A DNA stretch of 64,000 bases from Candidatus Methanoperedenaceae archaeon GB37 (GTDB lineage Archaea > Halobacteriota > Methanosarcinia > Methanosarcinales > EX4572-44). Below, piece after piece: positions 12,189 through 59,290 of the stretch (positions within the stretch are counted from its first letter, which is position 1; each line of letters starts with the position of its first letter). Position numbers and translations under genes: made by a program. A model generated the notes under the pieces. The model saw only the letters and a list, made by a program, of their open reading frames with translations, did no database searches and had not been told where the DNA came from. The stretch spans positions 1,338,150 to 1,402,149 of the forward strand of contig LR991653.1 of assembly GCA_905171695.1 (NCBI GenBank), read 5' to 3'.

Positions 12189-12303
12189 TCATGGGTTCAT
12201 TAATGAGTCTTTTAGAGACATTAATAATCTTATTTTTAACTATAGTTTCTGTTTCGTATTCATCATCTGAAGAATACTTATTTTCCGTTTCAGTGGAATT
12301 CAT
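12100..12303 (-). CDS. Small acidic hypothetical protein (67 aa)
   Basis: Its ATG overlaps the stop of the upstream gene (ATGA at 12300-12303), which suggests translational coupling. The sequence is rich in D/E/T. Confidence 0.4.
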   Translation of the reverse strand: MNSTETENKYSSDDEYETETIVKNKIINVSKRLINEPMNEYDVELDVSKYPKTKARKRVVAYVSLKS

Positions 12304-13037
12304 AATGAATCCTCCTCAATTATTTCTTTGATCTTAGAACCGATACTCTCCTTAAATTTTATCTTTACTAGGTTGTGCATATTATTCAATAAAGTAAACG
12401 TTTCGTTGAAATCACGAGGCTCTTTTGTGTAGCAATCATAATCCAACACAAATTCCCTTTTTGATATTGGATTCGGGAACTCGCTGTTGTACATCCCATA
12501 TTGAAATTTCATTAGAAAGTCATCGTAATTATAAACTATTGTGCCCATACATCTTGCTAAAGTTTTTTTCTCGCTTACAAATTCTAACGATTTAAATAGA
12601 TTTGAATTGATCCAGTTCTCCCAATCAAACGGATTTCCCTCATTTAGCGTTATTTGGTTAATATATTTTAGGCCCAAACGCGCACTGTTTCCTTCTAAAT
12701 TCAATTCATCTATAACAGTCTTTATTAATTTTCTAAAACGTTCAAATGATAAATATTTGGAAACCTCTATCCAAATGGCATTCTCATCAATATGAATCCA
12801 TTCGGTTTCTTGCTCATTCTTAAAATCAAAAGTCTCACTTCGTCTCCTTATGGTTTTTTGCTCGTTTGCCCCCATCATAACTTCAACAGTCTCTAACTGA
12901 CCTTCATTATATTTAGGCAACTCATCCTTTATTTTTTCTTTCGCTTTTCTTAGATAGTCTATAGGGATTTTTTTACGCTCTTCAAAATCGATTTTAAAAA
13001 CAACTTTTGTTAAAAAATTGTCTCTCCCCTCAACCAT
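12300..13037 (-). CDS. Hypothetical protein (245 aa), first gene of a three-gene minus-strand unit
   Basis: Long uninterrupted AT-rich ORF. GGAGG lies 8 nt upstream of the ATG (13043-13047, minus strand). I could not confidently assign a family. Confidence 0.55.
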   Translation of the reverse strand: MVEGRDNFLTKVVFKIDFEERKKIPIDYLRKAKEKIKDELPKYNEGQLETVEVMMGANEQKTIRRRSETFDFKNEQETEWIHIDENAIWIEVSKYLSFERFRKLIKTVIDELNLEGNSARLGLKYINQITLNEGNPFDWENWINSNLFKSLEFVSEKKTLARCMGTIVYNYDDFLMKFQYGMYNSEFPNPISKREFVLDYDCYTKEPRDFNETFTLLNNMHNLVKIKFKESIGSKIKEIIEEDSL

Positions 13038-13177
13038 AGTATTCCTCCGTTTTGCTTAATTCAATTTTATCCATCGCGTGTAGAGATTAGGTGAAGGGTG
13101 TTAAAAAAACTTTCCGTTTCATCTTTAAAACCAATTCCCTCTCTTATTGAAAATTTGGGTCTTCGCCTCGCGAAGCC

Positions 13178-13195
13178 GTTTAACCCCCGTTATGC
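13178..13195 (-). repeat. Short-form junction site (E6): GCATAAC-GGGG-GTTAAAC (minus-strand reading)
   Basis: The plus strand reads GTTTAAC-CCCC-GTTATGC. It is adjacent to the perfect hairpin CTTCGC-CTC-GCGAAG (13161-13175). Confidence 0.4.
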
Positions 13196-13315
13196 CGGGT
13201 TGCGTAGCAATCTGGTTCATGTTTCTTCCTCTCGTTTTCTTCGTTAAACGAATCCAAGCCCTGTTTCTTTTGGTGGTTCAGGTCTCCTTTCCTCCGGGAA
13301 GGAGAATTGGAAATT

Positions 13316-13394
13316 TTGGCTAACGTTCTGCGGATAAAAGAAGTTGCCGAAGGCAATTTGGACGAAGCGTAGCGAAGCCTTTTATTAGATGATG
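13316..13394 (-). repeat. Long-form attC-like structured repeat (E5), decayed copy
   Basis: About 90% identical to 14323-14408 over TAACGTTyTGCGGATAAAAGAAGTTGCCGAAGGCAATTTGGrCGAAGCGyAGCGAA. Relative to that copy it lacks 7 nt (CCGCTGT), which removes half of one stem arm. Confidence 0.7.
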
Positions 13395-13410
13395 TGCGGA
13401 GTCCATATTA

Positions 13411-14259
13411 TCAATAGCCTCCAAAGAATCTTATAAAATCAATAAACCAATGAAATGTAATAGCAGTCTCTAAATTTCGTTTATATTGTAAAAATGCCAT
13501 CGGCAATCCAAATAAAAAACTGGTAGATATTAGCATAAATAGAGCACCTGGTATATTATGTATCCATAATTCTGGAAAGTGAATTAAACTGTGTGGAACT
13601 ATACCAAAGAAAAAACTAATTATAACTGAGTATTTCCTCTCAACCTTCCCTTCCAATAAATAAAATATGAAATTCATAGTAAAAAACCTAAATATAATCT
13701 CTTCAGAGATTCCTGGTGCTAAAGCTAAAAAACCTGCACTAAATATGTTTGTCCATTCAGCCTCACCTAAAGTCAGTCTAAAATAGATGTAATTTATTAA
13801 TGCAAAAGGTAATGCAACTATAAGACCTATTAAAAATGACTTAAATAATGATTTATACTTCTGTAATATGAGTAATGACTTGTTTCTATTACTTCCACCC
13901 GATAATAAACTACCTCCAAGAAATGCAACAAATGTTACAATAGAGTTAATTACTACTGTGAATATGTCTGTTTGTTGAATAAAACTAAAATAACTTATAC
14001 CCGATAACAATATTCCAAGCGCAATATATCTTAAACTCAACCACTTAAATTTCTTATAAATTACTATTAAAGCAAGACAAAATATATAATATTCTGTCCA
14101 TGTCCAGGCTCTATATGTAAACCCAGAATCCTGTTTACTTAGTGTATGGACAATTGAAATTATGTATATTAAAACAAATATGGTGAACAAAAGTATGGTG
14201 TATATAAAATATTTCTTGAAATTATTATTCATATCTTTATTTAAAACAACGCTTCTCAT
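13411..14259 (-). CDS. CPBP-family intramembrane glutamic endopeptidase (CAAX protease/Abi-like)
   Basis: 282 aa, polytopic. It has the three CPBP motifs: GISEEIIFRFF (EExxxR), FGIVPHSLIH (FxxxH) and ITFHWFIDF (HxxxD/N). Confidence 0.75.
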   Translation of the reverse strand: MRSVVLNKDMNNNFKKYFIYTILLFTIFVLIYIISIVHTLSKQDSGFTYRAWTWTEYYIFCLALIVIYKKFKWLSLRYIALGILLSGISYFSFIQQTDIFTVVINSIVTFVAFLGGSLLSGGSNRNKSLLILQKYKSLFKSFLIGLIVALPFALINYIYFRLTLGEAEWTNIFSAGFLALAPGISEEIIFRFFTMNFIFYLLEGKVERKYSVIISFFFGIVPHSLIHFPELWIHNIPGALFMLISTSFLFGLPMAFLQYKRNLETAITFHWFIDFIRFFGGY

Positions 14260-14322
14260 TATATCTTGATTCCTCTCTTTCTTTTTCTTTAATCAATATT
14301 CCAATTACCATCACATTAGCAT

Positions 14323-14408
14323 GTCATCTAACGTTTTGCGGATAAAAGAAGTTGCCGAAGGCAATTTGGGCGAAGCGCAGCGAAATCTTTTATCCGCTGT
14401 TATATGAC
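14323..14408 (-). repeat. Long-form attC-like structured repeat (E4)
   Basis: Minus-strand reading: GTCATATAAC-A-GCGGATAAAAG-(38 nt incl. TTGCCTTCGGCAA hairpin)-CTTTTATCCGC-AAAAC-GTTAGATGAC. It has a perfect 11-bp stem pair, and the outer boxes are 9/10 complementary. Confidence 0.8.
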
Positions 14409-14462
14409 CCGAAGGGTAAGGTTGCAAAGCAACCATAGAGTACCGAACCCCGTCTAATATTT

Positions 14463-14927
14463 TCATTTTGGCTTACTATACCACTCTTTTTTTCCTTTAA
14501 GGAATTCATCCACTCCTTTTTTCTTAATTCTCCTTAGATTTCTTATATGGGCATCCCCGTGATTCGGCTTTAAAAAGTCCAGCTTCTCGCATGTTTCAAA
14601 TTCATCGCACTCCCAGCACCCCTCAAATCCTCTCTTCTGGCAACATTTCCTTATCTTGCAGAAAGGCGGACCTCCACCACCTCTGCAAGCGTTCTTGCAT
14701 CGCATTTTTACTAATGCACCCAGCACTTCATAGCATTCACTGTAGTTCTTGTATGCGGCAAAGAACGGCATCGTAGCCAGGTATTCCGCTGTCTTGTCAA
14801 ATTTTGTCTCTCTTAATTCTTTTCTGAGATCCCTTGCCAAATCTGCCGCCTTTTGCCTGTATCCAATACAATCCCCACAATAAAGACCACAGTATGCGAT
14901 TAGGTCCTTGTATTCTTTATTATTCAT
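14463..14927 (-). CDS. Cysteine-rich protein (DUF3795-like)
   Basis: 154 aa with YCGLYCGDCIGY near the N-terminus and a C-terminal Cys cluster (CKNACRGGGGPPFCKIRKCCQKRGFEGCWECDEFETC). GGAGGT lies 8 nt upstream of the ATG. Confidence 0.55.
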   Translation of the reverse strand: MNNKEYKDLIAYCGLYCGDCIGYRQKAADLARDLRKELRETKFDKTAEYLATMPFFAAYKNYSECYEVLGALVKMRCKNACRGGGGPPFCKIRKCCQKRGFEGCWECDEFETCEKLDFLKPNHGDAHIRNLRRIKKKGVDEFLKGKKEWYSKPK

Positions 14928-14997
14928 TTCTTGACCTCCATAAATGACACTTTGAATCTCTTTAATATTTCTATTTCCAAAGGCAGGGTTCGGAATT

Positions 14998-15018
14998 TCA
15001 TATAACTATGTTATATCA
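14998..15018. repeat. Palindromic minimal site TCATATAAC-TAT-GTTATATCA at the boundary of the cassette region
   Basis: Read directly. It overlaps the stop codon (15011-15013) of the CcdA/DsbD-like gene. Its minus-strand half GTTATATGA-AATTCCG matches the conserved GTTnnnnGAAATTC motif. Confidence 0.7.
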
Positions 15019-17137: not shown

Positions 17138-17264
17138 CGTTACTGCCGTCCACTCGTACTCTCTTCTGGATAATCGGTCCCTCATCCAAACTCTCTCCTC
17201 GGGATGAATGCACCGATTCTCCAGGAGCAGGTTCTCTAATACTCGTTCTATAATATTAGTCTTA

Positions 17265-17302
17265 CCCAATCCCCATCTTCTATATATTATATCCATGGGT
17301 GG
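17265..17302 (+). repeat. Left copy of a direct repeat bracketing the type III-C island
   Basis: CCCAATCCCCATCTTC (17265-17280) ... TGGGTGG (17296-17302). The same two blocks recur at 24825-24840 and 24846-24852. Confidence 0.8.
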
Positions 17303-17305
17303 CGG

Positions 17306-17391
17306 CGGGACGCGTCCATATAAAGCCGCGTAAATCTAAAAAACCGCTAACTGGCTTAGAGGGAAAATATACAAAGTGGACACATCCGCCC
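17306..17391. mobile_element. Miniature (about 86 bp) derivative of the IS6-like element (MITE-like)
   Basis: GGGACGCGTCCA (17307-17318) matches the IS left terminus GGGACCCGTCCA 11/12. GTGGACACATCCGCCC (17376-17391) matches the right terminus GTGGACACGTCCCC. Only about 57 bp lie between them and there is no ORF. Confidence 0.55.
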
Positions 17392-17437
17392 TACGTAATG
17401 ATAAAAAATAAAAGGTGGTATTGTATTAGATGAAAAC

Positions 17438-18523
17438 ATGGAAATTAAAATTAAGGCACTTACGCCCATCTGGACTGGTGGAGTGGAAGGCAAACCAGAC
17501 AGATTGCATACGACAAGCATCATTGGCAGCATGCGTTGGTGGTACGAGGTCGTTGTTAGGGGCCTTGGAGGGTATGCGTGTGATCCGTCGAGCGAAAAGA
17601 GATGTGAATTGTCGGGTAAGGAAAAGACACGTGAGGAAAGGCTTGCTAAGTTGTGCCCGGCATGTTATCTGTTTGGATGTGGGGGATGGAAAAGAAGATT
17701 TCGGTTAGAGGTTCAGAGTAATACCTCTGTTCCTTTTCAATTGGCCACTTTGGAAAGTAAGAACAAATTCAATCACTGGTGGCTTTCGCAGATTTTTGAA
17801 GATTCGCGAGGAACGAATTTACCATTTGGAGAGATATCATTGTCTTTAAATGGGGATGATGACGTGATTGATCAGGTTAAAGCTCTACTCTCTATCATGG
17901 TAAATATTGGTGGAATCGGTGCAAAAACTCAATATGGGTATGGTCAATTCGATTGGGACGATAAAATAGAATTAAAAAATGCGATTAACACAATTCGCCA
18001 GTTCTTATCAGGAAATATTTTTAAAAGCGGTTCAAACAAAGATAAATGGTATTCACTGACTAATTTTTGGTATTACAAATTGTCCATAACGTCTGACAAT
18101 GGGTTGGTGAACAAATTTAAAAATGCAAACTTGATTGGCAATGGAAATATGCCCTCGGATTATTTGCCTGTTTCGTTCGACATTCGCTATAAAATGCCAA
18201 GTTCTGGGGATGGTACTGGATTAAGGAGTGCATATTATTCATTTTGTAGGCATTCCATGTCAAAAGAAGACGCAAAACAAAAAACAAGATCATTATTTGG
18301 AACACTTGAAAATGATAAAATCGGAAGCAGGATTTTTGTAAGTCATCTTTTCAGGAGGAGAAACATTGATAATAATCATCATCTGAAAGTTTGGGGATTT
18401 ACTGACGATTCGGTTGGAAAAGTTGTTGGTGATGAATTAAAGAACATTTTTGGATTGGATAAACCCCCTTCTATAGTAACTGGAAAAGAGCTTATCAACT
18501 ACTCAAGGGGTGAAGTCCAATGA
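17438..18523 (+). CDS. cmr1: Type III RAMP protein, Cmr1-like (Cas7 group)
   Basis: 361 aa with IKALTPIWTGGVEGKPDRLHTTSIIGSMRWWYEVVVRGLGG, a Cys cluster ending CPACYLFGCGGW, and the Gly-rich GGIGAKTQYGYGQF. Confidence 0.75.
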   Translation: MEIKIKALTPIWTGGVEGKPDRLHTTSIIGSMRWWYEVVVRGLGGYACDPSSEKRCELSGKEKTREERLAKLCPACYLFGCGGWKRRFRLEVQSNTSVPFQLATLESKNKFNHWWLSQIFEDSRGTNLPFGEISLSLNGDDDVIDQVKALLSIMVNIGGIGAKTQYGYGQFDWDDKIELKNAINTIRQFLSGNIFKSGSNKDKWYSLTNFWYYKLSITSDNGLVNKFKNANLIGNGNMPSDYLPVSFDIRYKMPSSGDGTGLRSAYYSFCRHSMSKEDAKQKTRSLFGTLENDKIGSRIFVSHLFRRRNIDNNHHLKVWGFTDDSVGKVVGDELKNIFGLDKPPSIVTGKELINYSRGEVQ

Positions 18524-19767
18524 ATTATGATTATTGCTCGCATCTCACGAAGGAACAAAACCAAACCATTGAAAAAATATTGCGTCTAGAAAATGAAATA
18601 AAACAGGATAAACAGATAAAACAACAAAAAGAAACCGAAGTCGGAAGGCTACGAAAAGAATTATTATCACAAAACCCGCATTTGTTCTATCACGTTATAG
18701 CAGTGTTGAATAATTCATTAAAAGATAATTTACGCTCCACATGGCAAACGGGAAATATCAATATAAAATTGAACAATTACCATATCGATGAAATTATATC
18801 TCCATCAATCAACATATCCGTACTTCCAAAATACTCTTTTCTAATCCAATTCAAATTTACACTCGAAAAACCTTATATCTCACGTGATGAACAGGATTTT
18901 TACATCATAGACAATCCTATCCGCAAAGACAGGGTCTTTGGTCTTCCCTATATTACTCCCTCCTCATGGAAGGGAAGCCTACGGGCCGCACTGTGGCAAA
19001 ATGGACATAAAGAAGACGATGTCCAGATCAATCGAATATTTGGAAATAAACGAGGGATAGAAGAGCATACTGAACTCAAAGCCGGGCGATTGCATCTGTT
19101 TCCCACATTCTTTGATAGAATCGGTCTTGAGATAATAAATCCTCATAACAGGGAGAGACGGATTGTTGAGTATCCGATTCGTATCGAGGCCGTTCCGGGT
19201 GGTACATCGGGTATATTCACCCTTTTATATGTTCCATTCGATTTGATTGGGAAGAATGAAAAGGAGTTTAATAATCAGATCTCAAAAGATGTATGGATAA
19301 TTGCGCAGGGATTGAAAGCAATGTTCAGAGATTATGGCTTCGGTGCAAAGACTTCCAGTGGATTCGGTATTGCAAAACCAGAATTTACCGAAGGAAAACT
19401 CGTTCTGAAGGTCGAGGGCATAGACATCAACCAAAAAGAGGAGGCGACCATCCAAGAACCGGAGGACGGGTTTAAAAAATATCTTAATAGCGATGGGATT
19501 GTGAAAGAGGAGTTTAAAGGGAGTGGCGACGCTGGCCTTCTCAGCAACAATGAGTATAGCGAAACGGGTGAAAAATACGGCGGCGGCAGTCTTACCGAGT
19601 TCAAAAAGTTCAGGCGATGGTATGGCCGTTATGGTGAGAAATGGCAACAACAGTTAAAGAATTCTCATGCCGAATGGCCTATCTGGTGGTTTGAAAGCTT
19701 TGACGAGCTGGTGAATGTTGCGACGGAAATAAAAGAATCACTACTTTCCAAGGAGGCTGCGCGATGA
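18520..19767 (+). CDS. cmr6: Type III RAMP protein, Cmr6-like (Cas7 group) with N- and C-terminal extensions
   Basis: 415 aa with FGLPYITPSSWKGSLRAALW...INRIFG and the G-rich loop YGFGAKTSSGFG. It overlaps its neighbours by 4 nt at both ends (operon coupling). Confidence 0.7.
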   Translation: MNYDYCSHLTKEQNQTIEKILRLENEIKQDKQIKQQKETEVGRLRKELLSQNPHLFYHVIAVLNNSLKDNLRSTWQTGNINIKLNNYHIDEIISPSINISVLPKYSFLIQFKFTLEKPYISRDEQDFYIIDNPIRKDRVFGLPYITPSSWKGSLRAALWQNGHKEDDVQINRIFGNKRGIEEHTELKAGRLHLFPTFFDRIGLEIINPHNRERRIVEYPIRIEAVPGGTSGIFTLLYVPFDLIGKNEKEFNNQISKDVWIIAQGLKAMFRDYGFGAKTSSGFGIAKPEFTEGKLVLKVEGIDINQKEEATIQEPEDGFKKYLNSDGIVKEEFKGSGDAGLLSNNEYSETGEKYGGGSLTEFKKFRRWYGRYGEKWQQQLKNSHAEWPIWWFESFDELVNVATEIKESLLSKEAAR

Positions 19768-22451
19768 CTCCTGACCTTTCAGTTCTGAAGGAAAATAAGG
19801 AAGTCCTCCTCGCAGAGATGGCCGCCTGGCTGCATGATATGGGGAAGTGTAGCGATGAGATGATAGAAAAACAGGCTTTGGATTGTCCATCATCACCCAC
19901 ATTTCAATCCAATAGTGCATATAAAACCGCTTTTTCTTATCTACTGAATGGTAATAATCATAATATTAATTTGTTAGGCGAAACAGTAACCTTTAAAGAC
20001 CTCGTTGAAAAGGGGATGCCTAGGGCAATAAAGGATAGTAGTATTCAATTATCGCTAATTAAATACTTGGGTCGGTGTCATGCTGCTGCGCACATCGAAA
20101 AAGAAGGACAAGCAGATAAAAAGCAGACGGTGAATGATACAAGATTGAGTTCTCCCTTTGGAAATGAAACGGAAGTATTAGTACGTCTTACAGATAAGTT
20201 GAAAGCTTTGCCCTTTGATAAAATAGTCAACAGGGAGGAATTCCTGCCTATTTTGAAAGAAACATTCAAAAACGCACCTGGAGACACGGAAAGACCAATA
20301 AACGAGGTTGATCTGTGGAGCTGGTCCAGCATAGTCGCTGCTCTTTACAAATCTGCACTGGCAGGGGCACTTCTTGGTAACAAACCCAAACCAAATGATT
20401 TGAAGTGGCGGTTGTTGGCCATAAGAATTGATTCCGATAGGATTCTTGGCGATGTGGCGAAGATTCCAGTATTGCTTGCCAGAAAGAAATGGATTACCGA
20501 AGGGTTAGATAATGTTAAAGAACTGATTGAAGAAGAATATCCTCTTGGAAACGAGGTTTACAGGGATGAGAGCGGAAGTATTTTCGTTGTGCCGGACATC
20601 CCGAGTCTATTGAAACTTAAAGAAAATGCGGATAGTTCTGAAAAGACCTTGGAAGATTTAATCTCCAAAAAGTTAGGATTTGAAGGAGAGATTGTTGTAA
20701 CGCCTTCGTTATCTGAACACTGGTGGGGTCAGAATCCTAGTGGAAGACCTGATCCTACGAAAGATAAGATCCCACCGATTGGAGAGATCTTTCAGGAAAA
20801 ACCATATTCACCACCGGACCCAGAAAAGGTTAAGGAATGGTGGCGGGATGTGGACAATACAGAGATTTGCACGATTTCCTGGCTGAGACCTCAGGGAAAA
20901 AAAGAAGGAGCTTTGAGAAAATCTTCAGATTACTGGGCAAAAAAGGTTCGGGGACGATCTGAAGAATGGTATAAGGACAGGAGCAAAACTATATGGATAG
21001 ATGAGGTGGCAGATAAAAACGGCAGAATATGTCTCATCACCGGCAAACTGGACATATCAGGATGGTTAAAACCTAACGGTCATGTGAGGACCCTGCTTGT
21101 TAAGGCTCCAGATGGTAATTCCAGTCAAGTCATTCAGAAAACCCCTTCATTCGCTCGCCTCAGACGTGTCTGGGAAACAACAAAGACGTTCTGGGAGGAA
21201 GTCGAAGAAGATTTTGAGAAAACTGTCGGCAGGGTAGAAAAAAGATTGGTTATTACTGGCTCTGTAGATGATCTATCCAAAAATAAGCTTTTTAAAAACA
21301 ATGTGTATGAGATAGATATCGAAAAAACAAGGGTAAGTGTTTTCTATTCTGGAAATGGTCGGTTTATTGTCGTTGAAAATCTTGAACGATTGGCCCGTAA
21401 GATGGGTTATTCAAAGAACGATGATGACTATTTAGTGTACATTCAACAAGAATTAAACGATAAAGAAGTCAGAATATATAATCCAGACGGTAATAATAGA
21501 AATAAGCACATTGTACTAATAAAAATGTTGAGGGTCGAGCCGATAGAGGATAATTTCATTCCTGTGATCCCTATCTTCTCTGAGCCCAGTCTATTCATGG
21601 CAATCGTACCTGCCAACAAGGCTATGGACATCGTAAAAAACATCAATAAAAAATATGAAATAGAAATGGATAAAGTACGAAACCGTCTCCCTCTTAATAT
21701 CGGATTGACCTTTGCCAGATCTCATACGCCGATAATGGCTTTAATGGAGTCGGGGTGGAAGATGATAAACGCATCTCTAAAGGAGGAAATCAGGATACTC
21801 AATGCAGACTCTGAAAAATGCGATGATAAATATATCTTAAATTTCGAGAACGGGATAACCTGGCGTGTTCAGGGGAAAATGGGGGATGGAATAACAGAAG
21901 ATGTTTGGTATCCGTATTTTTATGTGGATGGAAATCCGAACGATAGAAATATGGTTTTTAAAGGTCCGAAGGGGTGGCTAGTGCATGTATCAGAATTAAA
22001 AAAAGGGGATGCCGTCAAAATCACACCTTCCTCTTTTGATTTCGAGTTTCTGGATTCTGCATCCCGGAGGTTTGAGATATCTTATGATGAAACTGGAAAA
22101 CGGCGTGATAATACAAAATCTAACCGTCCATATTTGATTGATAAATTTGATGACTTCGAGCGTATCTGGAAAGAGATGACAAATAATTTAGCAGCCACTC
22201 AAATAAAGAACGTCATAGGCCTTATTGAAACCAAACGGGAGGAATGGAATGTTTCCAGAGATGATGAAACATTCAAACAATTCGTCAATGATGTTCTCCG
22301 CAATGCCAACTGGAAGCATGGCACCCCTCAAAACCTCGATGAGATCACAAACATAGCAGTAAGTGGAGAGTTAAAAGATATTATCGAACTTTACATGAAT
22401 ATACTGAAGGCAAAAGGAGATTATATGAACGATACAGAGGTGAATACATGA
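19764..22451 (+). CDS. cas10: Cas10 large subunit with N-terminal HD domain and no GGDD cyclase motif
   Basis: 895 aa with HD motif AAWLHDMGK at residues 20-28. The conserved post-palm segment is RLPLNIGLTFARSHTPI. Where GGDD is expected about 40 aa upstream, the sequence reads SEPSLFMAIVPA. No GGDD occurs anywhere in the protein. Confidence 0.8.
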   Translation: MTPDLSVLKENKEVLLAEMAAWLHDMGKCSDEMIEKQALDCPSSPTFQSNSAYKTAFSYLLNGNNHNINLLGETVTFKDLVEKGMPRAIKDSSIQLSLIKYLGRCHAAAHIEKEGQADKKQTVNDTRLSSPFGNETEVLVRLTDKLKALPFDKIVNREEFLPILKETFKNAPGDTERPINEVDLWSWSSIVAALYKSALAGALLGNKPKPNDLKWRLLAIRIDSDRILGDVAKIPVLLARKKWITEGLDNVKELIEEEYPLGNEVYRDESGSIFVVPDIPSLLKLKENADSSEKTLEDLISKKLGFEGEIVVTPSLSEHWWGQNPSGRPDPTKDKIPPIGEIFQEKPYSPPDPEKVKEWWRDVDNTEICTISWLRPQGKKEGALRKSSDYWAKKVRGRSEEWYKDRSKTIWIDEVADKNGRICLITGKLDISGWLKPNGHVRTLLVKAPDGNSSQVIQKTPSFARLRRVWETTKTFWEEVEEDFEKTVGRVEKRLVITGSVDDLSKNKLFKNNVYEIDIEKTRVSVFYSGNGRFIVVENLERLARKMGYSKNDDDYLVYIQQELNDKEVRIYNPDGNNRNKHIVLIKMLRVEPIEDNFIPVIPIFSEPSLFMAIVPANKAMDIVKNINKKYEIEMDKVRNRLPLNIGLTFARSHTPIMALMESGWKMINASLKEEIRILNADSEKCDDKYILNFENGITWRVQGKMGDGITEDVWYPYFYVDGNPNDRNMVFKGPKGWLVHVSELKKGDAVKITPSSFDFEFLDSASRRFEISYDETGKRRDNTKSNRPYLIDKFDDFERIWKEMTNNLAATQIKNVIGLIETKREEWNVSRDDETFKQFVNDVLRNANWKHGTPQNLDEITNIAVSGELKDIIELYMNILKAKGDYMNDTEVNT

Positions 22452-23407
22452 ACAGTGAAAAGAAAAAGCTGTACACCCACCAGCGGTTTGTAATGTTCGC
22501 TCTTGACCCGATTCATATTGGGGCTGGTGGATACCGTCTTGGTCGGGTTGACAACAGTATTGTAAGAGAAATGGGGACGAATTTACCGAAGATTCCGGGT
22601 ACAAGCCTTGCAGGTGCCGCGCGAAGTTATGCTTCGATGAGATATGGGAAGCCTGAAGCCGCAGGCCAGCATAAACGGTTTATAGGTGAAAAAGAGAAGT
22701 GCCCGATAATCTACACCTTTGGAACCGCAACGGAAACCGGTGGTGAGGCAGGCAAGGTCAGCTTTGGAGATGCAAGGATTTTATTCTTCCCGGTGCCTTC
22801 AGTGGCGGGTCCTGTATGGGTCACCACAAAGGAGATTCTTGAGGAAGTTGGGTTCACCGTTAATGGTGGCGATGTCGGTGAGGAAACTGTGCTGTCCAAT
22901 CTTTCCTGGAGTAAAGAGCAAATAAACCTCGGCTGGTTATCGTTGAATCATAACTGGGGCTTAACCATTTCTCCACCCGAAGAAATCAAAGACAAAAAGG
23001 GATGGAAAGCAATAGAAAACAGGATTGTCCTCATTTCTCAGAAATTGTTTTCAGAGGTTGTCAACAGCAATTTGGAGGTGCGAACATCGGTTGCCATAAA
23101 CCCCGAGACCGGAGCTGCTGAAGACGGTGCCCTGTTCACATATGAAGCATTACCTCGAGCTACCTGGTTATGGCATGATATCATCGAGGATGATTACAAA
23201 CAAAGTTTCCCGAAAACGGAAAATCAATTCAAAGATAACAAGGAAAACAGTGGGGATGCTCTCGGGGAGATATGGGAGCGACCGTTGGATGTTGTGAAAG
23301 CCGGTTTAAGATTAATCGAATACCTTGGAATCGGTGGCATGGGGACACGCGGTTTTGGGAGGATGAAAAACATCTGTGATTGGGAGGTTGGCAGTAATGA
23401 ATCTTGA
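22448..23407 (+). CDS. cmr4: Cmr4-like Cas7 backbone subunit
   Basis: 319 aa with ALDPIHIGAGGYRLGRVDNSIVRE...LPKIPGTSLAGAARSYA and the C-terminal GIGGMGTRGFGRM glycine-rich loop. Confidence 0.8.
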   Translation: MNSEKKKLYTHQRFVMFALDPIHIGAGGYRLGRVDNSIVREMGTNLPKIPGTSLAGAARSYASMRYGKPEAAGQHKRFIGEKEKCPIIYTFGTATETGGEAGKVSFGDARILFFPVPSVAGPVWVTTKEILEEVGFTVNGGDVGEETVLSNLSWSKEQINLGWLSLNHNWGLTISPPEEIKDKKGWKAIENRIVLISQKLFSEVVNSNLEVRTSVAINPETGAAEDGALFTYEALPRATWLWHDIIEDDYKQSFPKTENQFKDNKENSGDALGEIWERPLDVVKAGLRLIEYLGIGGMGTRGFGRMKNICDWEVGSNES

Positions 23408-23762
23408 CCTTGAAGCTACGAGAACCTCCCAGGAAATAATAACGAAGACGGGAGGAAATAGATCCAGTGAGGTTGAAAACCTGATTACTAAGACGCTAGG
23501 GGTTCTTCAGGAGAACGGCATTTATGCATGCACACTCTATCTGAACTCCAGAACGAGTGAAGCGGAGAAGAAGATTGGCCCTGTCATCCACGAGGAACTT
23601 CTTAAAATGACGAAACGACTTGTTAAGACACCAATAAAAAACGATGATTACGAATATCTTACGGACGAAATCTGTTCAGACATTGACCTACTTATACTAA
23701 CAAAACAGCTCTGGGAGCAGACATTGACCTATGCTAGATACGGGGCGAAAGCAAGGACGTGA
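23397..23762 (+). CDS. cmr5: Cmr5-like small subunit (Cas11)
   Basis: About 121 aa and predicted helical (..VENLITKTLGVLQENGIYACTLYLNSR..). It lies between cmr4 and cmr3. The ATG at 23397 overlaps the cmr4 stop region; the track ORF starts at 23376. Confidence 0.6.
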   Translation: MNLDLEATRTSQEIITKTGGNRSSEVENLITKTLGVLQENGIYACTLYLNSRTSEAEKKIGPVIHEELLKMTKRLVKTPIKNDDYEYLTDEICSDIDLLILTKQLWEQTLTYARYGAKART

Positions 23763-23766
23763 TATT

Positions 23767-24660
23767 ATGACATGGACCCCCTATCTTGTAAGTTTCAAAT
23801 TGCGCTCACCAGTTCATATCGGATGGAAAAAAATTGGAAACTTGCAAGTAACACGCCCTTACATTACCGGAAAAACATTATGGGGTGCGCTGACAGCAAG
23901 ACTTGTTAGAGATGAAGGGAATAGCAATTATAGTGAGATTGGAAAACAAGTAGATGATGAATTACGCTTCACTTACTTTTATCCATCAACTAGTCCAGAT
24001 AAGGTCAATCTATGGCCATGGGATAAAAAGAACGAGTTTGCCTGGAAATTTCTGGGTAGTTATATCAGTACTGCAATAGAAGGCGATACCGCCGAGGAAG
24101 GGAGCCTCCATGAGGTTGAGTATATATCCCCAACAACTCGTGATGGAAACCCGGTCTTTCTTGTTGGGTATGTGATTGAAAAGAAGGATTGCCACTTGAA
24201 ATGGAAGGAAGCTTTAAAGCGGATTCAAATTGGCGGTGAGAGAGGATATGGATGGGGACGAACTGAGTTATTGAGCGATCCCAAACCAGTAGAAGAGTGC
24301 TTTGGTTATAGAATCGATAATTCCGAGATTTCTCCAATGATTTCTATTCCCAAAGATAATGTGATTCTTGCACATGCAAAAACCGATTTCCTAAAATGCA
24401 TAGGATATATTGAACCATTTCTGGGGAGAGAAACAAATGATTCGGATGGCGTTGGTGGAAAAATACCGCACCCTATAGGTGGAAAAATACCGCACCCTAT
24501 AGGTGGAAAAATACCGCACCCTATAGGTGGAAAAATACCGCACCCTATAACATGTTACACACCAGGGAGTAAAGTTGTGGCCGATACAACATTCGTTATT
24601 CAACCGAAAGGAGTATGGGAAAAAACGAGGTGCAATAGTTCGGGAGGTTCCAATCCATGA
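23767..24660 (+). CDS. cmr3: Cas5-group RAMP (Cmr3/Csx10-like) with an internal tandem octapeptide repeat
   Basis: MTWTPYLVSFKLRSPVHIGWKKIGNLQVTRPYITGKTLWGALTARLVR..., IGGERGYGWGR glycine-rich loop, then (GGKIPHPI)x4. It is the last gene of the operon. Confidence 0.65.
   Translation: MTWTPYLVSFKLRSPVHIGWKKIGNLQVTRPYITGKTLWGALTARLVRDEGNSNYSEIGKQVDDELRFTYFYPSTSPDKVNLWPWDKKNEFAWKFLGSYISTAIEGDTAEEGSLHEVEYISPTTRDGNPVFLVGYVIEKKDCHLKWKEALKRIQIGGERGYGWGRTELLSDPKPVEECFGYRIDNSEISPMISIPKDNVILAHAKTDFLKCIGYIEPFLGRETNDSDGVGGKIPHPIGGKIPHPIGGKIPHPIGGKIPHPITCYTPGSKVVADTTFVIQPKGVWEKTRCNSSGGSNP
24454..24549 (+). repeat. Perfect 4 x 24-bp in-frame tandem repeat (GGTGGAAAAATACCGCACCCTATA)
   Basis: Read directly: units at 24454-24477, 24478-24501, 24502-24525 and 24526-24549, with no mismatch. 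Each unit encodes GGKIPHPI. Confidence 0.97.
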
Positions 24661-24803
24661 CTCTGCGGACACTCCGTGTCCTTGCCTCGCCTTCGGCTCG
24701 GTCATATAACATGCGGGTATGCGGTTCGGGCTTACGCCCTCACCCAAATTGCTCCGCTCCCGTTGGTCGCTACGCAACTTCGCATACCCGCAAACCGTTA
24801 TAC
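24661..24803 (+). repeat. Long-form attC-like structured repeat (E1) immediately 3' of the type III-C operon
   Basis: CTCTGCGGACACTCCGTGTCCTTGCCTCGCCTTCGGCTCG-GTCATATAAC-AT-GCGGGTATGCG-(58 nt incl. CACCCAAATTGC)-CGCATACCCGC-AAACC-GTTATAC. It has the same architecture and conserved blocks as 14323-14408(-), but the 11-bp stems carry different, mutually compensating sequences. Confidence 0.8.
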
Positions 24804-24824
24804 CAACAATAAGTTTACAGAACC

Positions 24825-24852
24825 CCCAATCCCCATCTTCTTATATGGGTGG
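24825..24852 (+). repeat. Right copy of the direct repeat bracketing the type III-C island
   Basis: CCCAATCCCCATCTTC (24825-24840), TTATA, TGGGTGG (24846-24852). Compare 17265-17302. Confidence 0.8.
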
Positions 24853-24943: not shown

Positions 24944-25049
24944 GCGAGGGTAACCAAGTCGGCCAAAGGTGCAGGACTTAAGTGGTACTGGTGGTATCGG
25001 AGTTATCCTGTCTCGAAGGAGTTCATGGGTTCAAATCCCATCCCTCGCA
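24944..25049 (+). tRNA. tRNA-Leu (anticodon UAA) with a 22-nt intron after position 37
   Basis: Acceptor GCGAGGG/CCCTCGC; anticodon stem CAGGA (24972-24976)/TCCTG (25006-25010); loop CTTAAG + intron TGGTACTGGTGGTATCGGAGTT (24983-25004) + A; long variable arm; T arm ATGGG-TTCAAAT-CCCAT. No CCA is encoded. Confidence 0.8.
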
Positions 25050-25094
25050 TCAAAAACAGAAAATTTTCTGAATTGTGATGGATGTGGTCTCTTG

Positions 25095-25634
25095 ATGGTT
25101 GACGATGATACTCTCTTTGGCGAGGTTGTTCGGGTGGATGGTGTGAATGTGTATCTTGTGAGGTCGGTCTCTCGGTCTTCTCGTGAGCTTGGTGTTGGCG
25201 AGTTCGTGGGAGTTGAGTGTGGAGGGGATGTTGTGGTCTCTGTTCTCACTGGCGTGGAACGGTCGATACCTGAGGATGTGGTATCGATGATCTCTCTTGA
25301 GATGGAGTCGAAGTATCTCCCTTACAGTTCTGAGCTGGATAGTAGCTATTATCGTCTCTTTGGGCTTGGGCTTCTCTCCCGGAGTGGTGTTCAGCATGGT
25401 CTTCGTGTGGCTCCGCGGCTTCGCAGCAGGGTGTGGCGATTGGATGATGATACGATCAGGAAGTTTCACCTACCTCATGGTCGTGCTAACATCTCTTACT
25501 TCAATCGGTATCGTGAAGCACTCGGGGATGATCTCCTGCTTGCGATCGTTGATGAGCTCTGGGCTCTTCTGCCAGAGGCTCGGAGGATGCTTGCGCCGGT
25601 CAGGAAGTACCTTAAGGGTGGTGGTGCACTCTGA
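25095..25634 (+). CDS. Hypothetical protein resembling a stand-alone HerA-type N-terminal barrel domain
   Basis: From the internal Met (the track ORF start at 24969 lies inside the tRNA). FGEVVRVDGVNVYLV...GEFVGVECGGDVVVSVLTGVER parallels the N-terminal region of the downstream ATPase. Confidence 0.4.
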   Translation: MVDDDTLFGEVVRVDGVNVYLVRSVSRSSRELGVGEFVGVECGGDVVVSVLTGVERSIPEDVVSMISLEMESKYLPYSSELDSSYYRLFGLGLLSRSGVQHGLRVAPRLRSRVWRLDDDTIRKFHLPHGRANISYFNRYREALGDDLLLAIVDELWALLPEARRMLAPVRKYLKGGGAL

Positions 25635-25642
25635 GCGGGTGT

Positions 25643-27223
25643 GTGATCGGGCTTGTCTTGACGCACACGCGTGAGGGCTTCTCTTTTGTAACGAAGTACT
25701 CACTTGCATCTGGCGAGTTTGTCTCTTATCGGTCTGGGAGTGATCGCGTCCTTGCCCGTGTGAGTCATACTGAGCCCTTGCGGGATTATCCTGTGGAGTT
25801 CCTGCTCGATCCCGAGGTTGACGCTGAGGATGTTGCACTCTTTTATGGGCTTGATGCAGATGATTATCGGTTTTATCGTGTGCATGCACGGGTTGTGGGC
25901 TACTTTGACAGGCGGGTTAACGAGTTCATAAACCCGCGTATGATGCCGCTCTCAGGGACGAGGATAGAGCGAGTGGATGAGACGATCCTCTCGGATGTGA
26001 ACCGGGTCTCTGCAGACGAGGTTGGCTCGGCTCACATCGGCACGATACTTGGCACGAAGACCGATGCTGTTCTCTCTGTTCGTGAGATGGTGAGCCAGCA
26101 TCTCTCAATCATCGCTGCAACGGGCGCAGGCAAGTCCTATACCGTTGGCGTGATCGTGGAAGAGTTGATCTCGGCAAAGAACATGGCGTCGGTATTGATC
26201 TTCGATCCACACGGCGAGTACAGTGTGCTAAGCGAGATTCAGAACGATCAGAGCTTCTGGGAAGAGGGGTATCGACCAAGGGTGCGGATCGTTAAGCCGG
26301 ACCAGATAAAGATCAGACTCGGTGATCTCACGCCTGGCGATTTTATCAGTATCATGGACGATGGTAACATGTCAGAGAAGATGAAGACGCTCTTTGTGGA
26401 GGCTTATGAGAGTTTGAAGAGGGATGAGAGGAGCCTCACACGAAGTTTCACCAGGAACGAGCTTCGTGAGACTATTGAGGGCTTAAGTGATGGCAAGAAT
26501 GAGCTGAGCATTGCAGGCCTCCTCTGGCGCTATGATAGGATGGTGCGTGAGAAGATCTTCGATGACTTTCGGAGCATCCCACTCCGCGAGTACTTCCAGC
26601 CAGGGCTTCTCACCATAATGGATGTCTCAGGCATAGGGGAGTGGAAACAGCAGTTGATCGCAACGATTCTCCTCCGCCAGCTCTTCGATTCTCGGGAGGG
26701 CACAGATAATGAGCGTTACAGTGAAGAGTTCCGACCTGAGCGTTATCTACCCTATCCTGTCTTCCTGATACTTGAAGAGGCGCACAGGTTTGCACCGCAG
26801 AGTGGAGATGCGAAATCGAGACAGATACTCAAGAAAATCCTATCAGAGGGTCGAAAATTTGGAATTGGCGTATGCATGGTCTCACAGCGCCCAAGTAAAC
26901 TCGATTCAGATGCGCTCTCTCAGTGTATGACACAGATCACGATGCGAATCATCAATCCAGCAGATCAAAAGCAGATAGGAGAGAGCATCGAGTCGGTGAG
27001 CAGAGACCTGCTCGAAGAGCTACCAGCCCTCACACGGGGGCAGGCGATCGTAAGCGGTGTTGCCATAAACACACCGATCATCGTTGATATCAGAAAGCGG
27101 CGCACAAGAGAGATAGGTGGGACGAGCAAGGACGCACCGCAACTCTGGAGAGAAGAGATGCAAGAGAGGCGATATGAGACGGTGGAGAGACGGCCAAGCT
27201 ACGAACTCGATGTGGGAGTATAA
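25643..27223 (+). CDS. HerA/DUF87-type P-loop ATPase
   Basis: 526 aa with Walker A IIAATGAGKSYTV, Walker B/sensor VFLILEEAHRFAP, and GRKFGIGVCMVSQRPSKLD, typical of HerA/FtsK-like DUF87 ATPases. Confidence 0.75.
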   Translation: MIGLVLTHTREGFSFVTKYSLASGEFVSYRSGSDRVLARVSHTEPLRDYPVEFLLDPEVDAEDVALFYGLDADDYRFYRVHARVVGYFDRRVNEFINPRMMPLSGTRIERVDETILSDVNRVSADEVGSAHIGTILGTKTDAVLSVREMVSQHLSIIAATGAGKSYTVGVIVEELISAKNMASVLIFDPHGEYSVLSEIQNDQSFWEEGYRPRVRIVKPDQIKIRLGDLTPGDFISIMDDGNMSEKMKTLFVEAYESLKRDERSLTRSFTRNELRETIEGLSDGKNELSIAGLLWRYDRMVREKIFDDFRSIPLREYFQPGLLTIMDVSGIGEWKQQLIATILLRQLFDSREGTDNERYSEEFRPERYLPYPVFLILEEAHRFAPQSGDAKSRQILKKILSEGRKFGIGVCMVSQRPSKLDSDALSQCMTQITMRIINPADQKQIGESIESVSRDLLEELPALTRGQAIVSGVAINTPIIVDIRKRRTREIGGTSKDAPQLWREEMQERRYETVERRPSYELDVGV

Positions 27224-27326
27224 AAGAACAACCAGACCACATGCTACCCAATGCAGAAAACCCGTGTTAAGCGAAATTGCCTCAGCAAAAGTAGGTTCTA
27301 TGAAGTCTTAGAGAAGGGTACAAAAT

Positions 27327-27815
27327 ATGCCAGAATGGAAAAATCACGATAAGTGGGCTGAAAAAATGGGGATATCAAAAGAGACTTCAAAGTTTGTCAA
27401 TGGTCTAATTGATTTTCCAAAAAATTGTCAAGAGTTCCAAGATTTTTGTGAGAGAGACCCTAGTGCAAGAATTTTTACCAAAGGTAGACCAACACGCATG
27501 ACTGTAGCATCCCTAATAACCCACGATAGTGGTAGAAGTAACAAATTTTATAGAGAAATACAGCTAAAATTCTTATCACAAAAAGGGAGCGATCATGTAA
27601 AAGCATATTATCTACACCAAGTTTTAGATTATATAGAATGGTGGATTAAAAATTATTCTGAAGAAAATCTAACCGTTGAAAACATTTTACAGGAAAAAAG
27701 GTTGGAAAAGAAAATTGGCGATCCTATAAACGAAGAATTACAGTCAGTGGTGAAATTTGCAATCCAAAATTCAGAGGAAATATTGCAAGATTATAGCAGG
27801 GATGACATAAAATGA
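27327..27815 (+). CDS. Hypothetical protein (AT-rich single-gene cassette)
   Basis: 162-aa ORF, compositionally unlike its flanks and bounded by GTTAAGCG (27266) and the structured repeat at 27885. No family recognised. Confidence 0.5.
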   Translation: MPEWKNHDKWAEKMGISKETSKFVNGLIDFPKNCQEFQDFCERDPSARIFTKGRPTRMTVASLITHDSGRSNKFYREIQLKFLSQKGSDHVKAYYLHQVLDYIEWWIKNYSEENLTVENILQEKRLEKKIGDPINEELQSVVKFAIQNSEEILQDYSRDDIK

Positions 27816-27884
27816 TCAGAGAATCTATACTTTTAGTTGAAGATAATTCTTTGCCCATTTCATTAGCTCAGCGCTGTTGCACTC

Positions 27885-27956
27885 ACTTAACACGGTGTAT
27901 GCAGTTCGCTTTCATTTACCCACACTGTTCGGCTTCACAGCGCATTTCGCATACAC
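27885..27956 (+). repeat. Long-form attC-like structured repeat (E8)
   Basis: ACTTAAC-AC-GGTGTATGC-(46 nt)-GCATACAC-AAGAA. It has a perfect 8-bp stem pair GTGTATGC/GCATACAC. ACTTAAC fits RYYYAAC. No clear GTT box follows. Confidence 0.6.
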
Positions 27957-28049
27957 AAGAATGGATGAGGGATTACACCGTTTGATTAAGTATAAATCCG
28001 ATGGTGTGAGTACTCGGGAAGATGATCTTACGTCTGCAGGGATAGAATC

Positions 28050-29012
28050 ATGGAAGGGTTTGAACTTGTTAAAAGGAACACGGAAGAGCTTGTGAGCGAA
28101 GAAGAGATACGAGAGCTCTGCAGTTCCAGTCAGACGCCAAGAGCGTATGCCGGATATGAACCGAGTGGAAGGATACACATGGGGCATGTTCTGACCGTGA
28201 ACAAACTGATAGACCTCAAGAGGGCTGGATTTGACGTGACAGTCCTACTCGCAGACCTCCACGCATACCTCAACCGCAAAGGCAGTATGGACGAGATCCG
28301 AGAGATGGTTGAGTACAACAAGAGGTGTTTCATTGCACTCGGGCTTGACGAGAAGAGCACAAGATACGTCTGCGGGACAGACTTTCAACTCGGCTCCGAG
28401 TACACCCTGAATATGCTCAAGCTCTCAAGAACTGCCACGTTGAATCGAGCACGAAGAAGCATGGATGAAGTAAGTCGTGACGCAGAGAACCCATACGTCT
28501 CACAGATGATCTACCCGCTGATGCAAGCCGTTGACATAGCAATGCTGAGAATAGACGTTGCAGTCGGCGGAATCGACCAGCGCAAGATCCACATGCTCGC
28601 ACGAGACACACTACCATCCATCGGCTTCAAACCACCACTCTGCATCCACACGCCGATCCTGACAGGCCTCGACGGCTCCAAGATGTCAAGCTCAAAAGAG
28701 AACTATCTCTCAGTCGATGATGAACCAGAAGTCCTAAAGCGAAAGATAAAGAAGGCATACTGTCCCGAAGGCAGAACCGAGAAGAACCCAATCCTTGAAC
28801 TCTTCAGATACCACATCGAACCAAGATACGGAAGACTCAAAATAGAACGACCAGAGAAATTCGGAGGCGATATAGAATACGAAGACTACACTGCGCTTGA
28901 GAGCGACTTTGCAGAGAGGAGATTACACCCACAGGACCTTAAAAGAAGCGCAGCCGAATACCTGATAAAGATCTTCGAACCTGTCCGAAAGATGATGAAG
29001 AGCACAGAGTGA
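28050..29012 (+). CDS. tyrS: Tyrosyl-tRNA synthetase (archaeal type)
   Basis: 320 aa with GYEPSGRIHMGHVLTV (HIGH-type motif), DLHAYLN and KMSSSK (KMSKS motif). Confidence 0.9.
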   Translation: MEGFELVKRNTEELVSEEEIRELCSSSQTPRAYAGYEPSGRIHMGHVLTVNKLIDLKRAGFDVTVLLADLHAYLNRKGSMDEIREMVEYNKRCFIALGLDEKSTRYVCGTDFQLGSEYTLNMLKLSRTATLNRARRSMDEVSRDAENPYVSQMIYPLMQAVDIAMLRIDVAVGGIDQRKIHMLARDTLPSIGFKPPLCIHTPILTGLDGSKMSSSKENYLSVDDEPEVLKRKIKKAYCPEGRTEKNPILELFRYHIEPRYGRLKIERPEKFGGDIEYEDYTALESDFAERRLHPQDLKRSAAEYLIKIFEPVRKMMKSTE

Positions 29013-55182: not shown

Positions 55183-55185
55183 AAT

Positions 55186-58378: not shown

Positions 58379-58548
58379 GAAGACACCGTCTCGCTCACAA
58401 TCCTATGAAATCAGTTTGAATGAGGAACAGTATACAAGAATACTGGAGAAGAGAGAAGTTATGGACGAAGTAGGAACGATCGTATTCGGACTCGATTGCG
58501 TGAGTGCGTCTTACGTCTTCGGCTATCAATCTCCAAAGGACTGAAACC

Positions 58549-59214: not shown

Positions 59215-59290
59215 AAGGGTTCTGGATGTGGAAAGGATTAATAAAGACGGAGAAGATAGTTAAATATTGCTTTACTGTTGGTGAAAAAAT

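Follow-up and report, generated by a model that had tools for sequence, protein, structure and literature searches.

Sedentary chromosomal integrons, such as those with the Vibrio cholerae repeats, carry lineage-specific, conserved families of attC sites. Within one lineage, attC sites of the Vibrio cholerae type have long conserved blocks in common, while their stems vary with compensatory changes. In bacteria, isolated cassettes (SALIN) are described as well, with insertion at genomic GWT (attG) sites (Loot et al., 10.1101/2022.09.11.507474), and occasional imprecise excision that removes neighbouring chromosomal DNA is reported in the same work (10.1101/2022.09.11.507474). Integron cassettes in archaea were first reported in 2022, from fragmented MAGs (PMC9668308), in a survey that covers both archaeal integrons and CALINs (Ghaly et al. 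2022, Sci Adv, PMC9668308). Singleton attC sites were left out of that survey. It lists MAGs of Methanosarcinales that have 4-15 attC sites but lack IntI, and no genome from GoM-Arc1, Ethanoperedens or Argoarchaeum occurs in the portions of its supplementary files drawn on here (PMC9668308).

The DNA analysed here, called the window, is a stretch of 64,000 nucleotides from a 1.92-Mb contig of 'Ca. Methanoperedenaceae archaeon GB37', an ethane-oxidising archaeon of the GoM-Arc1/Ethanoperedens lineage; the cultures are described in PMC7175092. All coordinates refer to the window, and a slash within a sequence marks a junction. We examine a single gene and the repeat that follows it, lying between two host genes, which an earlier note on this DNA had described as a cassette.

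A single-gene unit between HerA and tyrS

The gene order at the locus is type III CRISPR-Cas RAMP genes, an intron-containing tRNA gene, a 221-aa ORF (24969-25634), a HerA gene, the gene designated ORF162, tyrS and a ParA/NUBPL gene. The 221-aa ORF has no family match, and its relatives lie just upstream of HerA in related genomes. The left host flank is the HerA-type ATPase gene (25643..27223, + strand; Pfam DUF87/HerA_C), whose relatives occur in GoM-Arc1, Ethanoperedens and Argoarchaeum MAGs, and whose stop codon TAA (27221-27223) lies within the hexamer GTATAA. The right host flank (27990..29012, + strand), kept in all alleles and in the sister species, consists of the TATA-like box GTATAAAT at 27990-27997, a 52-nt leader and tyrS itself (28050-29012; Pfam tRNA-synt_1b). 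ORF162 (27327..27815, + strand) lies between these flanks and encodes a protein of 162 aa that is 100% identical to a hypothetical protein of 'Candidatus Methanoperedenaceae archaeon GB37'. The earlier note had called this gene AT-rich, and it has 33% G+C against 52% in HerA and 50% in tyrS. The strings that the same note quoted are all found where it placed them (GTTAAGCG at 27266-27273, CACTTAAC at 27884-27891, GGTGTATGC at 27894-27902, GCATACAC at 27949-27956 and AAGAA at 27957-27961). Among the ORFs of the 64-kb window there is no gene for an integrase or other recombinase.

Among genome contigs, no relative of HerA has tyrS within 6 kb, and the informative sister loci came from look-ups with TyrS. 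Contigs that encode an identical TyrS, all of them 98-99.5% identical to the window, fall into two classes, with and without ORF162. The gene is present in six conspecific contigs (L080/L084, L081, L082, L088 and L171), and the segment that contains it is absent from four (L083, L085, L086 and L087), where tyrS follows 61 nt after HerA. Both alleles co-occur in one sample, ERZ27227318, from which L082 is filled and L083 short. In a sister species (L168-L170), whose TyrS is 87% identical and whose HerA region has about 84% nucleotide identity to the window, HerA and tyrS are adjacent, with a 215-nt spacer and no ORF. The absence from the sister species and from some strains establishes ORF162 and its surroundings as a single-gene unit acquired between HerA and tyrS. 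The earlier note had proposed just such a single-gene cassette at this place, and its absence from the sister species and from the four short contigs bears this out.

An alignment of the four short-allele contigs with the filled contig L084 places the strain-variable segment at 27224..27989, so that 766 nt in the window correspond to a single G in the short allele. The short allele reads GGGAGTATAA-G-GTATAAATCC, with breakpoints GTATAAG/../GTATAAAT. In the sister species the spacer reads GTATAA/GTTAAATCTTAAAAATATTGATGCAAAAGGTCTCTCTGGTCACACCTCTCGATTAA/GTATAAATC; its first ~55 nt are kept in a third species, L001 (score 62 versus 15 for shuffles), and the spacer shared by L168 and L001 is about as conserved as coding sequence. 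The window, reading ...TTACACCGTTTGATTAA/GTATAAATCC, retains ACACC-N4-GATTAA directly beside the shared flank. The 16 nt TACACCGTTTGATTAA (27974..27989, + strand) are thus a remnant of the ancestral HerA-tyrS spacer, matching TCACACCTCTCGATTAA of the sister species, which abuts the shared GTATAAATC. The short allele lacks these 16 nt, which makes it a derived deletion and not the pre-insertion state; the idea that it represents an empty site was dropped after the comparison with the sister species. Its left breakpoint coincides with the G/TT of a GTTAAAT box that, in the sister species, immediately follows the HerA stop. Its right breakpoint lies off the crossover point of the site described below, so the deletion did not arise by attC-mediated excision. 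The strain polymorphism reflects a larger deletion allele that took flanking spacer along with the cassette, rather than excision of the cassette itself. The earlier note had offered comparison of the HerA-tyrS region in related genomes, with a search for a clean junction, as a test; with the apparently empty allele being a derived deletion that has lost 27974-27989, this test is weaker than was assumed.

An attC-like site without its R' half

The region downstream of ORF162 contains a truncated attC-like site (27883..27956, + strand). Its parts are an R''-type box ACTTAAC (27885-27891), a stem GTGTATGC (27895-27902), a 46-nt centre (27903-27948) and a second stem GCATACAC (27949-27956). The box ACTTAAC fits RYYYAAC and aligns with the R'' boxes of two sites elsewhere in the window, A and C, and of a metagenomic site, L095; GTTAAGC, in front of the gene at 27266-27272, fits GTTRRRY. 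Such motifs alone are trivial, those of the RYYYAAC type being common. An R' box of the form GTTRRRY is absent from the 3' end of the site, where the sequence after the L' arm (27949-27956) reads AAGAATGGATGAG. A strict scan for RYYYAAC and GTTRRRY spaced 40-160 nt apart gave two matches in the window, neither of them at this element, and was rejected as too strict for the site family of the window. Rfam returned nothing at the gathering threshold and only noise at E <= 5. The native hairpin folds at the level of chance, with z scores against shuffles of +0.8, -0.1 and +0.3 as ssDNA and -0.6 as RNA. This chance-level fold had counted as evidence against a relation to attC, a view that was revised after the homology tests.

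The window holds three other sites, which belong to a structured-repeat family. Site A (14318-14410) and site C (24699-24808) fold as ssDNA with z scores of -4.95 and -3.5, and site B (13310-13402), a degenerate copy, folds at chance (z -0.55). The three have one architecture and common blocks, with compensatory changes in the stems. In the direction of the upstream ORF, the family architecture is R''(ATATAAC)-A-GCGG(stem)...CCCAAATTGC..GCAACTT-(stem')CCGC-AAAAC-R'(GTTAGAT or GTTATAC). The central spacer of the family is asymmetric, 1-2 nt on one side versus AAAAC on the other, and the corresponding positions of the 3' element are ACGG versus AAGAAT(G).

Compared with site C (24701-24787), the 3' element earns a local alignment score of 21, versus 8.7 +/- 1.4 for shuffles (z 8.7, equalled in 0 of 2000), with an alignment that runs from TCACTTAACA to TTCGCATAC (27883-27954). 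The homology is limited to the orientation that matches the ORF; the opposite orientation scores at chance. The stem of the element is that of site C (GGGTATGCG/CGCATACCC) with one extra T. The earlier note had taken its stem pair, GTGTATGC/GCATACAC, to differ from those of the other long sites by covariation, which holds with respect to sites A and B and fails with respect to site C, where the stem is nearly the same and homology is the explanation.

Of the covariance models of the site family, R1 and R2, which draw on two or three sites of the window, have no match at the 3' element. For R3, built from six sites, this element is the best new match in the window (27867-27986, - strand), at a weak 14.2 bits and an E value of 0.35 over the 128 kb searched, or 0.005 locally. 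The match starts 51 nt after the ORF162 stop, and the orientation of the model is antisense to the ORF, as it is for sites A, B and C. The alignment takes in both arms and the R'' side, with mismatches at the R' positions. These mismatches agree with the remark in the earlier note that a distal GTT box is missing and that the unit may be fixed or may have entered at a secondary site. To judge from its sequence, the 3' element is a weak, partial member of the attC-like structured repeat family of the window; the earlier note had assigned it to the same family as the other sites, and the homology to site C (z 8.7) and the R3 match speak for that assignment. Site C is the nearest other member, 3.1 kb upstream, where a spacing of less than 4 kb between two or more attC sites would count as a cluster; since the tRNA gene, the 221-aa ORF and HerA lie between it and ORF162, the two do not form an array.

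Homologues of ORF162 and the sites that follow them

ORF162 belongs to an uncharacterised family of helical proteins, with about 219 clusters at 50% identity. For ORF162 itself AlphaFold predicts a helical fold with confidence (pLDDT 86.6). Searches of Pfam, PHROGs, PADLOC, NCBIfam and PDB gave nothing for the protein, and neither did structural comparison. The residues H7, D29, H66, H97 and D101 are near-invariant in the family; from these conserved His and Asp residues one might guess at a metal-dependent enzyme. Searches of phages, plasmids and IMG/VR for the origin of the unit returned no match, and a phage, plasmid or viral origin was dropped. A 57-aa ORF (27812-27985) overlaps the stop codon of ORF162 (ATGA). 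The two SNPs that distinguish L084 from the window are both silent in the frame of this ORF, but it is without any homologue and is improbable as a real gene.

The closest homologues of ORF162 likewise appear as AT-rich islands. Other homologues lie in diverse contexts, often again as AT-rich islets, and no neighbouring gene is conserved across the homologues; examples are a position between nadB and nadC with HicAB, and positions beside XPB, EcoRV, PGK or TonB genes. Searches of metagenomes with R2 and R3 found complete sites 42-47 nt after the stop codons of homologues at L095 (48% identity), L121/L122, L123 and L135, which are four distinct homologues at independent loci. At L121 a second site lies 0.8 kb further on, after an Abi_alpha-like ORF, with DUF6650 and HEPN-like ORFs beyond it. 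R3 found no sites over 686 kb of control HerA and TyrS loci. The ORF162 family is recurrently linked with attC-like sites. The short contigs with ORF162 homologues were scanned for integrase or other recombinase genes, and contain none.

Where the acquired DNA begins and ends

Homology of the window with its relatives and with the short allele ends exactly at 27223. Because similarity to both other species ends at the HerA stop, the foreign sequence begins at 27224, 43 nt before the GTT box. The similarity of 27224-27326 to the ancestral spacer is no higher than that of shuffles. The first part of this stretch, a non-ancestral leader of 43 nt (27224..27266, + strand) with no similarity to the L168/L001 spacer, ends in AAAAC (27257-27261) followed by CCGTG, and AAAAC is the bulge pentamer that precedes the R' box in sites of the family. 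Compared with the 3' halves of family sites the leader gives nothing significant (z <= 1.9), and its similarity to the region after HerA in the relative L003 is at the level of chance. Since 27224-27266 is not ancestral spacer, a clean insertion into that spacer at G/TT (27266/27267) is not demonstrated. The earlier note had predicted a clean junction and indel boundaries at 27266 and 27961; the strain indel in fact spans 27224-27989, and the predicted left boundary is 43 nt off.

The right end is confined to a junction zone, AAGAATGGATGAGGGAT (27957..27973, + strand), as homology to site C ends at 27954-27956 and homology to the sister spacer has resumed by 27974. Because 27974-27989 is ancestral spacer, the acquired DNA must end between 27957 and 27973. 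Within this zone, a G/AT at 27964/27965 would fit a GWT secondary site (GWT consensus from 10.1101/2022.09.11.507474). The joint after removal of the cassette would read ..CCGTG/ATGAGG.., which fits GWT, with a left 43 nt that is unlike the ancestral spacer. No conspecific contig with this joint was found.

Pairing between the two ends of the unit

The left pairing arm CCGTGTTAAGCGA (27262..27274, + strand), which holds the R'-type box GTTAAGC (27266-27272), is complementary at 12 of 13 positions to 27883-27895, a segment of the 3' element. A pairing as good is reached by 7 of 500 shuffles if it is left unanchored, and by none of 20000 if the R'' box is fixed by homology. This result upholds the terminal-pairing rule that the earlier note had proposed, and the same rule applies at L095. 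There, the cassette opens 27 nt ahead of its start codon with GTTGTCC, an exact match to the reverse complement of its own R'' box, GGACAAC, whereas its own R' box is GTTAAAT. At L121, L123 and L135 the sites agree as far as the bulge pentamer, and from the R' box on they differ (GTTAACC, GATAGGG and ATTAACG, respectively). The pairing at L095 and the divergence among the other three are the signature of a crossover at the R' box.

Such pairing follows from the entry of cassettes as circles: when the circle joins a recipient site and becomes linear, the bases that come to stand first (GTTAAGC in the window) partner the R'' box of the cassette's own site (ACTTAAC). The cassette in the window would start at G/TT (27266/27267), and the joint of the circular form would read GCATACAC..G/TTAAGCG or GCATACAC/CGTGTTAAGCG. 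Together, GCATACAC (27949-27956) and CCGTGTTAAGCG (27262-27273) cover the 19-nt 5' arm CACTTAACACGGTGTATGC and leave no gap between them. If 27956 is joined to 27263 (segment 27263-27281), a 17-bp stem results, with z -3.99 versus +0.33 for the native sequence; the join was chosen from the repeats themselves. The complementarity extends 4-5 nt upstream of GTT (CCGTG), which a strict G/TT crossover does not predict.

Origin of the unit

The observation that prompted the analysis is confirmed as real and as more than chance, and the interpretation that the earlier note attached to it is partly supported. We consider it moderately probable that the unit is an isolated, decayed integron-type cassette, stranded outside any array and comparable to a bacterial SALIN. 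Its gene, ORF162, would have come by horizontal transfer and would lack a promoter, and an attC-like recombination site would lie about 50-70 nt downstream of it. In its normal working, the imperfect palindrome would fold as single-stranded DNA and an enzyme of the tyrosine recombinase type would cut it at the R' box, the recombination chemistry presumably being of the single-strand kind. As ORF162 has the same orientation as both of its neighbours, it is probably expressed by read-through from HerA; downstream of the cassette the TATA-like box of tyrS is intact. For lack of an R' partner at its right end, the native site has lost its fold; the cassette is very probably fixed, and it is probably immobile now. 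Entry may have occurred at a secondary site of the GWT type, or a fragment of an array may have been imported that carried along the end of the site before it. By the first route, a circular cassette would have inserted at the G/AT of 27964/27965, if the leader was already resident, and the pre-insertion allele would read ..AAAACCCGTG/ATGAGGGATTACACC. The unit would work like an integron cassette; its membership in the integron family is unproven, because no integrase was found and the architecture of the site is atypical.

An alternative that we think possible, if rather unlikely, dispenses with site-specific recombination of a single circular cassette. A piece of a donor array would have replaced about 39 nt of ancestral spacer through illegitimate or flank-homology recombination; on its left would be the 3' end of the preceding site (..AAAAC-CCGTG), on its right the L' arm of the site that belongs to ORF162, and the gene itself in between. 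Such a piece would fit a foreign sequence that starts with the first base after the HerA stop, at 27224 and 43 nt before the GTT box, and a leader that ends in the family bulge pentamer AAAAC, but that leader is not significantly similar to the 3' halves of family sites (z <= 1.9). At the other end, the R' box of the unit's own site and the end of its L' stem are missing and the spacer segment kept in L168 and L001 is gone, much as replacement by a broken piece would leave them; yet the right end falls within a few nucleotides of the canonical crossover (27957-27973), where a random break would be a matter of luck. No donor array is known.

A broader proposal, which we regard as doubtful, is that the GB37 genome carries a working cassette-exchange system of its own, whose enzyme may not be a classical IntI, and for which the HerA-tyrS spacer is a recurrent landing place. 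At this spacer the HerA stop of the sister species is followed at once by the consensus box GTTAAAT, and the relative L003 has a site 72 nt after HerA. If the proposal were true, the sites would be of a distinct architecture, with the asymmetric AAAAC bulge and the conserved inner hairpin, and the strain polymorphism would record recent activity. The cassettes would vary in size, ORF162 being an example of a single gene and a 7.5-kb type III CRISPR-Cas module marking the upper end, and would be delivered beside core genes and not only into one array.

Two remaining explanations have very little to recommend them. One is a small transposon or an element of the MITE type, whose ends would be either the 13-nt inverted repeat (27262-27274 and 27883-27895) or a direct repeat, GTATAA or AAGAAY, at the edges of the indel. 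It would account for an ORF flanked by a 12/13 inverted repeat, but the 13-mer is not enriched in the window, and the right arm of the repeat belongs to a site family that has its own architecture. GTATAA does occur on both sides of the indel, and AAGAAC and AAGAAT occur at 27224 and 27957, but GTATAA is already double in the short allele, and the ends of the indel are not inverted repeats. There is no transposase, and the non-coding parts of the unit have no other copy in the window or in 171 loci; for want of terminal repeats at the indel ends, of a transposase and of other copies, readings as an IS, MITE or IS200/IS605 element were rejected. An ordinary lineage-specific orphan gene with chance repeats, its 3' element serving only as a transcript-end structure, is equally hard to credit, since the chance-level fold of the native 3' region, the commonness of RYYYAAC-like motifs, and the absence of an Rfam family match and of a recombinase gene nearby stand against a site homology of z 8.7, an anchored pairing equalled in 0 of 20000 shuffles, sites after homologues at four independent loci versus none in 686 kb of controls, and a unit that is polymorphic among strains and absent from the sister species.

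Comparison with known systems

The ORF162 unit is a real example of an already known kind of mobile unit, and the result for the unit itself is modest, the unit being decayed and probably immobile. What it adds is an isolated cassette, if the reading as a stranded cassette is right, that is placed in a closed genome, with a sister species that lacks it and co-occurring strains that differ at the locus. Gain of cassettes outside arrays, experimentally shown only in E. coli, would thereby become observable in a natural archaeal population. In addition, an uncharacterised protein family (about 219 clusters) emerges as recurrently cassette-borne, and model R3 offers a means of looking through genomes of Methanosarcinales for arrays and for the recombinase that is missing.

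In comparison with the Vibrio cholerae repeats, the sequences of the GB37 family are unrelated, the host is archaeal, and no associated integrase has been identified. The likeness to the archaeal integrons is one of layout: an ORF is followed, on the same strand, by an imperfect palindrome with RYYYAAC and GTTRRRY ends. Verified archaeal attC sites (PMC9668308, Data S9/S10) have symmetric spacers of ~5 nt, in the order R''-AAxxx-L'' .. L'-xxxxx-R'. The GB37 family is unlike them in having 1-2 nt versus AAAAC, and in having a conserved inner hairpin (CCCAAATTGC..GCAACTT) as well. The sites of the GB37 family are at most candidate substrates for enzymes of the IntI type.

The closest comparison is with SALIN. 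The unit in GB37 differs from them in its archaeal host, in a site that lacks the R' half and in a left 43 nt that is not the ancestral target; the right breakpoint of the deletion allele is off the crossover point, and no IntI is known for the GB37 genome. The resemblance lies in the arrangement of one gene and one attC-type site between chromosomal genes, far from any integrase or array. It extends to the junctions, of which the left reads ..G/TT and the possible right one, G/AT, fits GWT, and to the larger deletion allele at the GB37 locus, which resembles the imprecise excision described for SALIN.

Sequence downstream of HerA in relatives

A complete site of the attC-like family (84 bits) occurs at positions 7650-7765 of contig L003, from the relative Ca. 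Ethanoperedens MAG GoM-Arc1-LC-WB58, in which HerA is 70% identical. The site follows the HerA stop codon at a distance of 72 nt and lies in sequence that is missing from the Argoarchaeum relatives. This is a hint of a recurrent landing place in the stretch that follows HerA. In the sister species, represented by contig L168, HerA and tyrS are adjacent, and the ancestral spacer between them opens with GTTAAAT (at about 3786-3800). This box fits GTTRRRY perfectly and comes immediately after GTATAA, which contains the HerA stop codon. The left breakpoint of the short allele, the conspecific form without the cassette gene ORF162, falls within this box, at G|TT. The L168 spacer also carries an additional segment of about 115-120 nt, at about 3860-3975 between a TATA-like box and tyrS, that is absent from the window. 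The palindrome GTTGTTAT..ATAACAAC lies within this segment, and the segment could be a small mobile element.

The stop codon of ORF162 is overlapped (ATGA) by a 57-aa ORF (27812-27985), which also spans the attC-like site that follows ORF162. Both of the SNPs that separate the window from the conspecific filled contig L084 in this interval are synonymous in the frame of the 57-aa ORF (2/2), and no homologue of the ORF was found anywhere.

CRISPR-Cas modules and site C

A type III CRISPR-Cas module of 7.5 kb (17303-24844), with RAMP genes at 17438-24660, is present in the window and absent from the related-strain contigs L083 and L084. In the window, copies of a direct repeat, CCCAATCCCCATCTTCT(T)ATAT..GGGTGG, of about 25-30 nt lie on either side of it, at 17263-17302 and 24826-24850. 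The 3' end of the module holds attC-like site C (24699-24808), the R'' box of which is matched by TTATAT near the left edge of the module. The last RAMP gene (23731-24660) carries at its 3' end five tandem copies of the 24-nt unit GGTGGAAAAATACCGCACCCTATA (24454-24573), which account for the weak "Cornifin" repeat match of its protein. An intron-containing tRNA at 24944-25049 is recognized through Rfam (48 bits) and is not called by ARAGORN. The listed ORF 24969-25634 overlaps this tRNA, and its true start codon must therefore be further downstream.

A type I-B-like cas operon (52320-63488), encoding Cas8b/TM1802, Cas7 and Cas3 and accompanied by further RAMP genes, is AT-rich, with 26-37% G+C compared to about 50% for the host. 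It represents a second compositionally foreign CRISPR-Cas module within the same 64 kb.

Cassette-like arrays

On the minus strand, the region from about 11700 to 15014 looks like a cassette array. Its ORFs are AT-rich, lie on the same strand and encode a DUF3795 protein, an Rce1-like protein and two unknowns, with attC-like sites A (14318-14410) and B (13310-13402) set between them. At the array start, adjoining a host DsbD-like gene, is the mini-palindrome ATATAAC-ATA-GTTATAT (15000-15014), and GTTATATGAA, which follows it, pairs with the R'' box of site A. The region is bordered by IS fragments.

The metagenome contig L121/L122 shows two sites of the same family 0.8 kb apart, at 913-1018 and 1701-1810. 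The gene order is ORF162 homologue, first site, Abi_alpha-like ORF, second site, then DUF6650 and HEPN-like ORFs. By the usual criterion, the two sites form a small CALIN-like array, and the cargo is of defence type.
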